In this document: positions 1,798-58,620 of the stretch, piece by piece
Layout of the letters: each line of letters begins with the position of its first letter
Position numbering within the stretch: the first letter of the stretch is position 1
NCBI GenBank assembly: GCA_964016885.1
Contig: OZ024741.1
Location: 45,136,001 to 45,200,000 of the forward strand
Origin: Eledone cirrhosa
Lineage: Eukaryota
DNA length: 64,000 nt
Direction of reading: 5' to 3'
Translations under genes and position numbers: made by a program
Notes under the pieces: model-generated
The model's database searches: none
What the model was told of the DNA's origin: nothing
Seen by the model: the letters and a program-made list of their open reading frames with translations, nothing else

Positions 1798-1934
1798 GTA
1801 TACTAGGGAGAGGATCAGGGGTGTATAACACTCCACTTATCCAGCAGGCAGTATAAGGTTAGCTCAATGTCTGAGGACAGAGCCGTGATATAATAAATAA
1901 CAAAGAACGCCTATAGCATATGCATATCTTTACT

Positions 1935-1980
1935 TGCTAACATTGTTTCATCCGCACTATAAGTGGGACTCATCAGAGCA
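1935..1980 (-). ncRNA. Type I hammerhead ribozyme
   Basis: Reverse complement: TGCT-CTGATGA-GTCC-cacttatagtgc-GGAT-GAAA-CAATG-TT-AGCA; canonical core, stems I and II present. Confidence 0.85.
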
Positions 1981-2781
1981 TAAAGGTTAATTACATACCA
2001 TACAAGCAATAACAAATCCAAGACATTGAAGAAAGAAAAATAATAATAGACGATAAAGGATATTAAGGAAGTAAAAGTAAAAATAAAGATAAGAATAAAA
2101 ATAAAAATAAAAATAAAAATAAAAATAAGATAATAAAATAAACAATGAAAAATAAGGGGTGCTATCAGTCACAGTTGGGCGGGGTGCTGTCAGCATATAG
2201 TTACATACAAGCATACACATGGATAAGAGAACAGACAAGAGTAGATAAGATAGATAGGATTAGGTAAGAGTAGGTAAAAAATAGGTGAAAAACAGACTTA
2301 TAATATATATAAGAAAATATAAAGAAATACATAACAAACTTACATATAAAATATAAAATATACAGATAATAGTGATACAGGGTAAGGAATGAGATAAAAT
2401 AATATAAAATTAAAATTAAAATTATATAAAATAGAACATAATATAATATAATTATAAAATAAGATAAAATAAGGTAAACTAAAATAAAATAAAATAGACT
2501 AAATTAAAATAATATAATATAAGATATAATTAAATGTAATTAAATAAATAAATAAATAAATAAATAAATAAAAATTAAATAAATAAATAAAATTAAAATT
2601 AAATTTAAAATTAAAATTAAATTTAAATAAATAAATAAATAAATAAATAAGTAAATAAATAAATAAATAAATAAATAAATAAATAAATGGAATTAAATAA
2701 GTAAATAAATAAAATGAGATAACATGAAATGAAATAAAATAAAATAAAATGAAATAAAGTAAATTGAGATAAGATATATAT

Positions 2782-2942
2782 TTTTTTAGAATATATCTCT
2801 TGAATATATCAGGGGCCCACGAAGGCCCTAAGTGTCACAGTTATGTGTATCACTTGACCAATTTTTTAAAAATATATTTCTTGAAAATATCAGGGGCCCA
2901 CGAAGGCACTAAGTGTCACAGTCACCAGTATCACTTGACCAT
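2782..2942. repeat. Two-copy tandem duplication, ~81 bp period
   Basis: tatcaggggcccacgaaggc.ctaagtgtcacagt....gtatcacttgacca occurs twice. Confidence 0.9.
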
Positions 2943-4435
2943 TGCAAGGCAATGGAGGCGTCCCAGGTTGGGCAGTCTCAAAAGTTCACTCGAAAGTCGC
3001 GGGTGTGCATTCACACAGTTGAGCGGTGGGGTAATCACAAACCGGTTCACACCCGGGCAGGAGTCCAATAGTCAGAGAGAGGTGCATCGAAGGAAGGTAG
3101 AAGAATTCACGTGCATTAGCAAGCGAGGTGCAGGCGGGTTAGCCAAAGCAAGCAGACACAGTTGGAGCGCATACAAAAGATATATAAAAAGACAGAAGAT
3201 ATATAAAAAATAGCTTCAAGAGCCATTAAGTCACCGCATTGGGACATCACAAGATTGTACACATCAATATGTTCAGCACGTATATGCACATATACACACC
3301 ACATGCATATGCAGAGACGGTATACATATATATATATATATTTTTTTTTATATACAGACATATACAACCACCTACACCCATACACATATAAATGTATACA
3401 CGGACACACCCGCACACACACACAGCGTAGGACACCCGGGTCAAAGCTGATATTAAACACCGAAATACCACATTAGGCCAGACCCACCACCACGGATAAT
3501 ACATTCAAAATAAATACATACGATGAGATGTAGTAAAATAAAGTTGAAATCCTACGGAGATAATCATGTCCGCACGTGCCATTGCCCGATTCAAGTGTAC
3601 ACAGACCGGTAGTAACTACGGAGGGCTATCGGGGCCAAAACGTTACTTTCGGGTTCAGAACAACGACCGTCAATATATGGAAGGCCGATCGTGCTAGAAA
3701 GACTACAACCCCGGGCAAGAGCTCCCAGAAGTCAGCCTGTAGATCTTAAACCACAGAATATGAGGGCAACACGTACATGCGCCACGTATCCACTGCTTAC
3801 GGCGGGATGGCACAGGTCCGCCCACAGTTACAGGCTAAATTTCTATTAGTGCAGCCTAAATCACAGTACACGCTTTACATAAATACGTTACATCACAACT
3901 CTATAGATATATGTATATATATACATATATGTATATATAGACATATATACATATATGTATATGTATATATATATGTATATATATATATATATATATATAT
4001 GTATATATATACATATATGTATATATATACATATATATATGTATATATATATATATATATATGTATATATATATATATATATATATGTAAATATATATAT
4101 ATATATATGTATATATATATATACATATGTATATATATATATATATATATATATATATATATATGTATATATGTATATATATATATATATATATATATAT
4201 GTATCTATATATATATATGTATATATATATATATGTATATATCTATATATATATATGTATATATCTTTATATATATATATGTATATATCTTTATATATAT
4301 ATATATGAATATATCTTTATATATATATATATGTATATATCTTTATATATATATATATGTATATATATATATATATATATATAAAGATATATACATATGT
4401 ATATATAAAGATATATACATATATATATATAAAGA

Positions 4436-55097: not shown

Positions 55098-55655
55098 ATT
55101 GTTAGACTTTGGGAGGGTCATGTTGCCAATAAGAAACACACGAACCAGTTACCCCACTTCAATTTATTATATATTTATAAATTTATAAATTTACAAATCT
55201 ACAAACTTGTAAATTTCTGGTTGGTTGGTTGGTTCCACAACCAGATAGTTGTTTATATATATAGTCATAGTCCTTTCGTCACACACTCTGTGACCTCTTC
55301 AGTGACTGGGGATTCCTTTCTTCTCTTCGTTTCTGTGCCTTTTCTTTCTTCTATCCTACGCCATTTTGTTTCTGTGTGACAAGAAACAAAATGGCGTAGG
55401 ATAGAAGAAAGAAAAGGCACAGAAACGAAGAGAAGAAAGGAATCCACAGTCACTGAAGAGGTCACAGAGTGTGTGACGAAAGGACTATGATTATATATAT
55501 AAACAACTATCTGGTTGTGGAACCAACCAACCAACCAGAAATTTATAAGTTTGTAGATTTGTAAATTTATAAATTTATAAATATATATAAAATGGAATTG
55601 AAAGCAACTGGTGCGTGTGTTTCTTATTGGCAACCTCCCAAAGTATAACAATATC
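55098..55655. mobile_element. ~550 bp palindromic pLTR dimer (centre ~55377) with HHRs at 55263-55307 (-) and 55448-55492 (+)
   Basis: Arms are reverse complements; same family and same centre as 46644-47045. Confidence 0.88.
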
Positions 55656-56019
55656 GGTTTAAACACACGATTTCAGATAAAGAATCTTGCTAAACAAATT
55701 CAGAAACGAAATACATATATATATATATATATATATATATATATATATATATATATATATACATATATATATATATATATATATATATATATATATATAT
55801 ATATATATATATATATATATATATATATACATATATATATATATATACATATATATATATATATATATATATATATATATATATATATATATATATATAT
55901 ATATATATATATATATATATATATATATACATATATATATATATATACATATATATATATATATATATATACATATATATATATATATATACATATATAC
56001 ATATATATATATATATATA

Positions 56020-56536
56020 TAACTTTGAATAACTTTGAAATGTTTTGGCCAGTATTGGCCCAGGCCATGTCTAACTTAATAGCACCACCTGGTGAAGTCT
56101 TTCAATTCAGGATTTGGGCACCATGGCCCATTCGAGAAGAGAATTACTGTTTGCGGAGACATATCCGGGTGTGGGTGGTTTGTCCGGGATTACTTGGAGG
56201 AATTTGTCCAAAGACTTCTTGAATTTTGTGTGGTCAGTTTCTGTTTTGACGTGTCCTGGTGTGATGTTGAAGAGAGCAGGGCCGATTGAGGTGAAATAAT
56301 TGTGCCGTATTGTTGTTATGAGTTGCGATTTAGATTTTTGAATGGGACGGATAGCACGGGGCCCAAGCCTTGGGTGTATCTTGAAGGCGATGCCAACATC
56401 ATTTGGGCAGTGATGATGGAACATTTTCTACATCATGCAGATAATATAACGCTCACGGCGACGTTGGAGTGAGTAAAGTTTCAGGTTTTCTAATCGACCC
56501 CAGTAGTCAAGGTCTGACATGCCATCTATCTTTTTA
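56020..56536 (-). mobile_element. CR1/L2-group LINE 3' fragment (same family as 17795-18616)
   Basis: [43 protein letters not shown]; same tail. Confidence 0.88.
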
Positions 56537-56908
56537 CATATATATATATATATATATATATATACATATATAAATACATATATATATATATATACATATA
56601 TATATATATATATATATATATATATATATATATATATACATATATATATATATATATATATATATATATATACATATATATATATATATATATACATATA
56701 TATATATATATATATACATATATATATATATACATACATATATATATATATACATATATATACATATACATATATATATATATACATATATATATATATA
56801 TATACATATATATATATATATATATATACATATATATATATATATATATATATATACATATATATATATATATATATATATATATATATACATATATATA
56901 TATATATA

Positions 56909-58620
56909 CAGCATTTTCCGTTGTGTTGTAATATAAATATTACACACAGTAGATTATCAGCTCACGTAGAGTTTGCTCGACGGTTCCAGTTGTAGTTCCA
57001 AAAGTAATCCGGAGAAAAATAGAAAGATTTGAATGGATACAGTTTAGTTGAAAGGAATTTATTGACACGTGTTTCTATAACAGTTACATAACCTAAAACA
57101 GCTATCTACAAACTTTTAGTTATGCAGACATTCAATATTTCAATGTTATTATTTACTGTCATTTCATCAGAATAATATTACTGAGGACCTATTTAGTTTT
57201 TATAGAGAATATTAGGAGGGAGGGGTGAAGTTGTTAGAAGAATATTTGAAGGAGTGGTTTTTCGATAGCAGTGAGAATTCTTGGTGGCAGTGAGTAATTA
57301 GATTCCCATCTGTTGTTTTGACATTTTTTATAGAATATATTATTGGTTATTTTTCTAAATCTATAGAAGGATTAGAGATAGTGAAGATATGCGTGGTTGG
57401 TTTTGTGTTTGCACTTAATTAACATTCAGACTTAAATTTTTCTTTCAAGTGTACGTATCCTTTCACCCACGCATTCACACACAAATATATTTGCACACCT
57501 CTACAAAATACATATACACACAATTCACATATCATACTTACATATATATACACATGCATACACATATATATACACACATGTATTCATGTACATACATACG
57601 CGCTCATGTGTATACATTTTCATACTCAACTTATCTTTATATACACACGTATAGACACACACATATATACATACATACTCTAGTCCATGTGTACACACAT
57701 ACACATACATACACATCCATATACACATATATACACACACACATACACATACACATATACATATATATATATATATATATATATATATATATATATATAT
57801 ATATATACATATGCATACATACACAAACATACATATACACACATATACATATATATATATATATAAGCACTTTAATACATGAATACACTTACATCTAACT
57901 ATACACATCAAACATATATATATATTTACTTATTCATATACATTTTCACATATATATACATAATTATGGACGTTTTTAGACACATTCATTATCGCATATT
58001 TGTACCTATTCTCATCAGCATATCTTTTCATTATTAGTATGGTAATTTAAGGTTATTAATATATGTTGAGAAGAGATTGTTTTTATATTTTTCTAACTAG
58101 ATTAAGGTTTATATAGTTGGGGGATGTCCCTCTTTTATGTAATATTCGGCTTGTAGTGGGAAAAAAGGGTTTTAGTTCTGTGACGGCAGAATAATGTTCG
58201 TTCAATTCTGTCTGAATGTTAATTAAGTGCAAACACAAAACCAACCACGCATATCTTCACTATCTCTAATCCTTCTATAGATTTAGAAAAATAACCAATA
58301 ATATATTCTATAAAAAATGTCAAAACAACAGATGGGAATCTAATTACTCACTGTCACCAAGAATTCTCACTGCTATCGAAAAACCACTCCTTCAACTATT
58401 CTTCTAACAACTTCACCCCTCCCTCCTAATATTCTCTATAAAAACTAAATAGGTCCTCAGTAATATTATTCTGATGAAATGACAGTAAATAATAACATTG
58501 AAATATTGAATGTCTGCATAACTAAAAGTTTGAAGATAGCTGTTTTAGGTTATGTAACTGTTATAGAAACACGTGTCAATAAATTCCTTTCAACTAAACT
58601 GTATCCATTCAAATCTTTCT
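56909..58620. mobile_element. Minus-strand PLE 3' fragment (56909-58210; family of 20683-22490) plus inverted pLTR arm (58211-58620)
   Basis: 57020-57430 is the reverse complement of 58211-58620; HHR-like TTGAAGA..GAAACACGTGTC at 58530-58577 (+) and 57064-57111 (-); bulged hairpin at 56976-57014 (-). Confidence 0.88.

Follow-up and report, generated by a model that had tools for sequence, protein, structure and literature searches.

Two copies of a bulged hairpin on one leader predict both ends of Hydra-clade Penelope-like element insertions

What determines where an inserted Penelope-like element (PLE) ends? The question is raised by a 64,000-nt stretch of the Eledone cirrhosa genome (3.0 Gb), positions 45136001–45200000 of contig OZ024741.1 and hereafter the window, in which element fragments lie between (TA)n-like microsatellite tracts that make up ∼40% of the sequence. 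The one-sided tail and the inverted pseudo-long terminal repeat (pLTR) of PLEs have been known for some twenty years with no sequence signal assigned to them, and an in vitro study only bracketed the RNA binding site. A first-pass annotation of the window had noted a hairpin with a 2-nt bulge downstream of the hammerhead ribozyme (HHR) in several pLTR families. We found that this hairpin is a clade-wide, paired cis-element that predicts both ends of the insertions of Hydra-clade PLEs.

All 11 hairpins of that annotation were verified in position and strand, and a twelfth, absent from it, was found at 23615–23635 (−). The instances represent eight families: F18 (1861–1884, −), F5 (8512–8545, −, and 20055–20088, +), F3 (11641–11660, −), F4 (23535–23555, +, the twelfth copy on the opposite arm and a decayed copy at 24870–24892, +), F0 (28915–28938, −) and three families named here by position, 4929 (4929–4973, +, with a long UA-rich loop, and its duplicate at 5991–6035, +), 19808 (19808–19831, +) and 56976 (56976–57014, −, with a 23-nt loop). 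These families had been called unrelated; their number stands, but wherever a protein is visible the elements are homologous members of the Hydra clade. On the same strand, a whole HHR core lies upstream of the hairpins at 1861 (core at 1945–1976, −), 8512 (8603–8634, −), 11641 (11725–11767, −), 23535/23617, 28915 (29003–29028, −) and 56976 (57137–57170, −). In the 56976 family, two HHR-like 3′ halves stand in tandem ahead of the hairpin (57040–57170). Upstream of 4929/5991 the core has one change, upstream of 19808 and 24870 only its 3′ half is present, and 20055 has no same-strand HHR because its arm begins at 20047. The hairpin had been said to follow an HHR always, by some tens of nucleotides; a whole same-strand HHR is, however, not present upstream of every instance.

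A strict descriptor of the hairpin matched 13 times in the 37,378 non-microsatellite bases of the window; over 100 dinucleotide shuffles, the average was 2.1 matches and the highest number 5. Ten of the 13 matches were pLTR copies; the three elsewhere are the number expected by chance. Two copies failed the descriptor, 24870 by a C·A first upper pair and 56976 by a U·C outer pair, and the hairpins at 4929/5991 have U·U as third pair. The upper stem does contain covarying pairs, but the statement that it covaries fully was too strong. The motif was absent from the other HHR/pLTR families of the window (7700–7873, 46621/55077 and 33098/47624/52155).

To relate the hairpin to the ends of insertions, we compared junctions with (TA)n across copies, drawing on an HHR scan of 1.36 Mb of the genome that gave 243 HHR calls. 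(A search with Rfam model RF00163 returned matches mostly from one family.) In the motif families these junctions were bimodal, lying mostly just before the hairpin, at 40–60 nt past the HHR cut, or else at 85–220 nt past the cut. For instance, F0 insertions ended at reference positions 3552 and 3652, and the F0 hairpin begins at 3558. The first-pass annotation had placed the hairpin between the HHR and (TA)n. The relevant junctions lie 2–12 nt 5′ of a hairpin copy rather than 40–125 nt 3′ of it, and the downstream junction noted there is that of a second hairpin copy, which genomic 3′ ends omit. We refer to the first and second copies on a leader as M1 and M2, respectively, and to the ends 5′ of them as the short and the long end. 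The order on the leader is HHR, 45–75 nt, a UA-rich spot, M1, a repeat distance of 57–169 nt, a second UA-rich spot, M2 and the AUG, with M2 ∼25–75 nt from the start codon.

M2 was predicted beforehand to lie just beyond the long end. It was found there in every read-through copy of F18, F3 and F5, as in F0: 92 nt downstream of M1 in F18 (3 read-through copies among 30 anchor matches), 91 nt in F3 (1 of 30), 169 nt in F5 (4 of 31) and 101 nt in full-length copies of F0. This search covered these four families and the 56976 family; at the DNA level the 56976 family matched only itself. In the end mapping of F0, F18, F3 and F5, with distances counted from the first C of M1 or M2, 159 of 177 junctions lay 2–12 nt and 176 of 177 lay 0–19 nt to the 5′ side. 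The 177 junctions, among which a few duplicate loci may persist, remained from 549 rows after the removal of 360 rows of a reference that begins in microsatellite (L129) and of 12 small-reference rows. Loci of F18, F3 and F5 were fetched by means of tail queries; those of F0 were not.

The two kinds of end are also paired. Among outward-facing end pairs from 12 families, 72 of 76 consisted of one long and one short end (53 of 57 without the 19 pairs from tail-selected loci), whereas about half would be expected if ends were chosen independently. Since insertions end at M1 and at M2, the 'tail' of Hydra elements is the interval between the two copies. The fold-backs of the window illustrate this arrangement. 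In F3, the fold-back 11582–14591 has a long arm that ends at ∼11580 and an HHR-bearing arm at 14494–14595 (+) that ends 6 nt before M1. In the fold-back 19687–19890, the short arm (19687–19802, −) stops 6 nt before M1 and the long end is at 19890. The short arm of an F5 fold-back (19939–20048, −, HHR at 19987–20018) stops 4 nt before M1, and its long arm, barely more than tail, ends at ∼20212. In the 56976 family the long end is at 56911 and the opposite arm, with HHR and short end (58471–58622, +), terminates 4 nt before M1; a further HHR and short end of this family lie at 22338–22489 (+). The short arm of the fold-back 4408–5012 (4408–4560, −) matches the long arm, which carries the hairpin at 4929, to ∼3 nt before M1 and then continues weakly into TA-like sequence. 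Other long ends lie at ∼1798 (F18), ∼8385 (F5), 24930 (F4) and 28844 (F0), and the HHR and short end of another family, F19, at 28632–28731 (+); other F19 copies have M1. The single short+short pair proved to be a nested insertion: at L127:2310–2712, (TA)n together with a 41-nt tail from a different family interrupts an F0 pLTR exactly at its short-end site, which suggests that this site can itself be a target.

The twin arrangement extends beyond this genome. Marine Hydra elements were retrieved by protein only (77 metagenome loci and 9 loci in genome bins), and gave 42 HHR families, 28 of them with at least 100 readable nucleotides. The 3′ word of the motif was found in 22 of these 28 and occurred twice in 16, with a repeat distance of 57–70 nt in the 16 references, as compared with 68–169 nt in this genome. 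The six misses comprised two families with twin copies that have a U-A outer pair and, as judged by eye, two with variant forms and two of another HHR type. No 3′ word occurred in 4,440 nt of upstream sequence; seven antisense matches probably reflect the near-palindromic flank of the motif. Of 30 junctions from other organisms, 12 could be located by means of a longer relative, and each of these lay 1–7 nt before a copy (10 M1, 2 M2). By eye, the motif is contained in three of six published Hydra consensus sequences (PMC8557442 supplement): Hydra-1_Ajap has both copies before the AUG, and Hydra-2_Amil and Hydra-2_Ajap each have one after the HHR. The consensus of Hydra-1_Amil stops before the motif position. 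Among the 120 homologues listed, one from Argonauta hians was alone in having a species name, and a search of viral contigs with the Hydra protein gave no relative. Contigs filed as bacterial genome bins (L245–L253) contain Hydra elements with (TA)n junctions; since one of them, by eye, matches the end of Hydra-2_Amil, the contigs probably represent animal DNA.

The core of the motif is N-CUC-Y...R-U-H-GAG-N′, in which the pairs flanking the core covary and the outer pair is G-C, A-U or U-A. The 3′ words were chosen irrespective of pairing or bulge, and RCUC was present within 45 nt upstream of all 72. In 40 non-redundant instances, the first bulge base was always U and the second was U (28), C (6) or A (6); the bulge, annotated as U-pyrimidine, is accordingly U-H (UU, UC or UA), with only its first base fixed. 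The CUC/GAG core, also annotated as fixed, varies in some instances to UUC/GAA or CAC/GUG. The upper pairs 1, 2 and 3 were canonical in 39, 33 and 26 of the 40 instances, respectively, the first being C-G in 26 and U-A in 12. The mutual information of each of these pairs was reached by none of 5,000 permutations, a statistic inflated by kinship. On a tree of 46 proteins, all three changes of pair 1 were two-sided, and joint changes numbered 14 against 23 expected under independence for pair 2 and 18 against 29 for pair 3. By contrast, slid controls on the same tree gave 13/13, 16/16, 21/26 and 23/26, a far weaker coupling. Three rows were re-picked for this analysis by a nearest-CUC rule, and the tree was built without named reference elements. 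In M2, pair 1 is nearly always C-G and the upper stem is weaker. Within the 11 nt that precede the motif, UA occurred in 38 of 40 instances, compared with 25 and 23 of 40 in control windows. The 3′ flank reads GAG-YR-CUC and is nearly palindromic; in marine families it is ACUCU.

Two other explanations of the motif's sequence were rejected. Cross-pairing between M1 and M2 was predicted for a single leader out of 22, and the two copies do not share their first upper pair. A splice-donor word (GTAAGT) lies on the opposite strand just after M1 in F5 (8500–8512) and F4 (24893–24905); it is not found in the marine families with their ACUCU flank, and an antisense splice donor was rejected as a general reading.

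In general, Hydra-clade elements, which are PLEs with a C-terminal endonuclease, are shorter than 3 kb, and are defined by RWK and DKT motifs, a CxC-x5-C linker, CxxC, CxH, a canonical HHR and (TA)n targets (PMC8557442). Full-length F0 contains RIRW, PADKT, CNCRVSANC, CNLC and CPH at the corresponding places, and the same motifs are found in 75 aligned homologues. Across these homologues, the D and K of DKT are invariant and the T is present in 87%; in the N-terminal motif (RIRWRAF in F0 copies) the R is present in 92% and the W in 91%. The C-terminal GIY-YIG domain of F0 lacks CCHH and has CxxC and CxH around conserved E and N residues, the cysteines being invariant. The arginines R38, R40, R488 and R490 are conserved. 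In the window, F0 retains a 5′-truncated open reading frame (ORF) of 485 aa (31037–32491, −), with near-intact 895-aa copies elsewhere; some families of the genome are young, with identical copies and ORFs that are nearly intact. This F0 copy also contains ∼180 nt (29508–29689) that other F0 copies lack and that is repeated alone at many loci, presumably a host SINE. A 5′-truncated F5 ORF fragment (10288–11250, −; thumb, linker and GIY-YIG) has the same linker and endonuclease motifs as F0, and F18, F3 and F5 extend into ORFs that share the N-terminus of F0. The motif families also have a canonical HHR in the pLTR and insert into (TA)n. Judged by sequence, the families with a visible protein are related Hydra-clade PLEs, and the F4, 19808 and 4929 families, in which no ORF was seen, are assigned to the clade by the motif. 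A Neptune or Nematis label was rejected, DKT and CxC-x5-C having been found in place of DKG and a CX2-5CxxC linker. The F0 unit of ∼4.8 kb exceeds the usual length, and the ORFs of marine relatives measure ∼2.1 kb. A scan of the Hydra proteins against Pfam returned nothing. Their predicted structure (pLDDT of 91.8) ranked telomerase reverse transcriptase (TERT) structures first in Foldseek, with a TM-score of only ∼0.35; this model speaks for a TERT-like kinship only and says nothing about RNA contact.

Elements outside the clade delimit the motif. As a control for clade specificity, the window contains DKG-type PLEs (33098–36913 and 47624–52559; Neptune or Nematis-like) with a degenerate HHR and no CUC/GAG, one of which (ORF 48950–51097) has a 35-nt one-sided tail and, by eye, no motif. 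In family F2, the motif was seen in none of 10 long copies; the automatic linking of HHR families to ORF type, which was noisy and made two evident mis-links, was used for F2 only. The motif is therefore a Hydra trait as far as tested and not the cause of all tails. Other non-Hydra PLE families (6272–7873, 46621–47040 and 55077–55711) have a terminal word of 20 nt in common. Their ends are of two kinds, one of which lies only 4 nt after the presumed HHR cut; these families may hold a different paired signal.

How might a pair of hairpins set a pair of ends? A precedent is provided by the anole PLE Poseidon_Ac. Its protein, a predicted dimer, cuts and extends both strands of AT-rich DNA and initiates reverse transcription internally on the RNA, at two sites between which the tail lies; RNA ∼55 nt 3′ of the first start is needed, and a binding motif was hypothesized only, between +20 and +172 (PMC11167929). 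Poseidon_Ac and the Hydra elements have in common two alternative ends, a one-sided tail, an inverted pLTR, an AT-rich target and RNA needed 3′ of the start (PMC11167929, PMC3846280). They differ in that the tail of Poseidon_Ac is 30–40 bp with no repeated structure named, whereas in Hydra a structure stands behind each end and the tails are ∼57–169 nt. In the first-pass annotation, the hairpin was taken for a structured RNA cis-element that possibly positions priming on (TA)n. Covariation on the protein tree and the fixed spacing to the ends support a structured element linked to such priming, although the geometry of the junction is different. On balance, we think that M1 and M2 are probably RNA sites bound by the reverse transcriptase (RT)-endonuclease, each setting one internal start of target-primed reverse transcription.

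By such a mechanism, a protein dimer would cut both strands of (TA)n, and the active site at M1 would prime from one DNA end and that at M2 from the other. Priming would be aided by 1–5 nt of UA microhomology with the nicked (TA)n, reverse transcription starting a few bases upstream of each hairpin on the UA-rich patch. Both cDNAs would then run towards the HHR and be joined head to head, yielding an inverted pLTR whose one-sided tail is the M1–M2 interval. Starts on a plain linear leader would yield the abundant fold-back stubs of 90–500 bp. As M2 presumably occurs only at the pLTR–ORF junction, copying of a whole ORF would require a circular or tandem RNA, or a template jump. Arms that exceed one unit and arms that overlap by ∼3 kb occur, as do tandem arrays. 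Genomic 3′ ends lack M2, yet arms can exceed one unit; the template is therefore likely to be a circle made by the HHR, as proposed in PMC4209133, or a tandem transcript. The pairing of long with short ends would be simplest if one leader engaged both active sites, in which case the trailing RT would displace the leading cDNA; alternatively, two RNAs might be bound asymmetrically. The variable M1–M2 distance would fit a flexible single strand. Less firmly, the bulge, with its invariant U, free spacer, G-C and A-U, may form a U·A-U triple and an arginine pocket like those of TAR and 7SK. A more elaborate version is possible but doubtful: two TAR-like hairpins on one leader of a ribozyme-made circular RNA would load both RTs of a dimer, and each RT would take its primer from a different side of the (TA)n cut. 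If true, such double-headed priming would account at once for the inverted pLTR with its one-sided tail, for copies longer than a unit and for what the hammerhead does, and paired signals of their own would be expected in other PLE clades.

Several observations weigh against the reading of M1 and M2 as RNA sites that set the starts of reverse transcription. The helix was predicted for the RNA in 17 of 22 leaders at M1 and 17 of 22 at M2, yet the cDNA strand was predicted to form it as well, in 18 and 12 leaders, respectively, and the excess of G·U over A·C in upper pairs 1–3 was only 4:0, and 3:2 in the own-genome set. The core is UUC/GAA in 2 of 27 hand-picked own-genome instances (two families) and CAC/GUG in L251, where it would disrupt the proposed triple. 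Only degenerate forms of the motif were seen by eye in Hydra-1_Obim and Hydra-1_Crog, the latter breaking the arginine-sandwich pattern, as L251 does. Retrieval by tail queries biases the F18, F3 and F5 loci towards long ends. The end pairs that were not long+short include, besides the nested insertion, two pairs of a long end with an end in the M1 loop and one long+long pair with microsatellite between. Six genomic ends lie within the UA-rich loop of the 4929-family M1, 30 nt past its start, and no ORF was seen in the fold-back interior. The converging F4 fold-back 23374–23796 breaks the outward orientation. Non-Hydra families of the window have tails without the motif, and by eye the motif was not seen in the 96 nt of anole PLE RNA shown in the supplement of PMC11167929, so that this precedent holds by analogy.

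The prediction of the helix on the cDNA strand is also what would be expected if the hairpins acted in DNA, folding in single-stranded cDNA or second strand, with GIY-YIG nicking the adjacent UA-rich spot and the ends reflecting resolution of an intermediate. The near-palindromic 3′ flank and the insertion placed exactly in a short-end site at L127 would suit such a mechanism; moreover, the tail has been ascribed to endonuclease-mediated resolution (PMC8557442), and earlier work cited in PMC11167929 had the Penelope endonuclease requiring the tail for recognition. However, in the one full-length PLE system studied in vitro, the tail is bounded by RT starts on RNA (PMC11167929), and the Hydra ends fall on the side expected if the start is upstream of a bound RNA site. 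Furthermore, U·U and G·U pairs are tolerated on the sense strand, and a repeat distance of 57–169 nt does not fit a staggered cut in duplex DNA. We therefore consider action in DNA unlikely.

Still less probable is that the hairpins serve another role, such as RNA packaging or translational control near the AUG, and that ends form wherever UA-rich spots anneal best to nicked (TA)n. M2 does lie close to the start codon, UA is enriched right before each copy and some ends of the 4929 family fall in a UA-rich loop, but microhomology alone does not account for the long-plus-short make-up of 72 of 76 end pairs, and further UA-rich spots in the same leaders are unused. Finally, processing of the RNA just 5′ of each copy, by a cut or by transcript termination, with RT starting from ordinary RNA 3′ ends, is very improbable: AAUAAA follows the HHR cut site closely in several families, but many families lack it, the anole PLE starts internally on intact RNA (PMC11167929), and a poly(A)-site reading was rejected because AAUAAA, where present, is ∼40 nt from the short end and junctions have no poly(A).

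The RNA sites proposed here have partial counterparts among known systems. In TAR, G26 pairs with C39; in telomerase RNA elements bound by TERT and in R2 3′ UTR recognition, a structured RNA site beside the copied stretch probably fixes the register of the RT. Hydra differs from the latter two in having two copies per leader and a site that lies 3′ of the start; neither sequence nor Rfam comparison gave a match to those RNAs. The sequence pattern of the arginine sandwich was largely present in the Hydra hairpin, with U as first bulge base in 40 of 40 instances and a canonical pair before the bulge in 39 of 40. As in TAR (U23·A27-U38) and 7SK ASM3 (U40·A43-U66), the first U of the bulge could cap an A-U pair two steps on, a Watson-Crick pair precedes the bulge and G occupies the two arginine-contact positions; a 2-nt UU bulge is shared with 7SK (PMC6189040). 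By contrast, the Hydra loop closes on the other side, as in a circular permutation, and the hairpin has a conserved 3′ flank. The resemblance is a structural analogy only.

The paired element is apparently undescribed so far. Consistent with the suggestion that it is not a named motif, an Rfam scan of the window gave none at the gathering threshold among the 150 of 727 matches listed, two twin-motif leaders gave only matches with E > 2, and no RNA holder was listed for the leader RNA. The words 'hairpin', 'bulge' and 'stem-loop' do not occur in the main text of PMC8557442, and neither the twin motif nor its link to the ends is described there; three of the consensus sequences published with it contain the motif. 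No description was found in the accessible literature on PLEs, pLTRs, HHRs, tails, Neptune and Hydra; subscription papers, Repbase notes and supplements may hold one. With a 20-nt motif whose two copies predict the two ends to a few bases, template recognition by a telomerase-related RT becomes directly testable. The motif can also be used to recognize Hydra elements as well as their non-coding stubs and, should its role be confirmed, would provide a portable signal for programmed insertion into (TA)n.

Other repeats were noted in passing. Tandem arrays of HHR-bearing units with periods of 310 bp (L030:7300–9400) and 468 bp (L032:744–3550) are retrozyme-like and without the motif. An LTR-retrotransposon fragment occupies 38194–42425, with a 947-aa open pol frame (38195–41035) followed by a gag-like stretch on the other strand. 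The 3′ fragments of two LINE-like families (17746–18615, 56022–56534, 61329–62044 and 25451–26497) likewise end in (TA)n.

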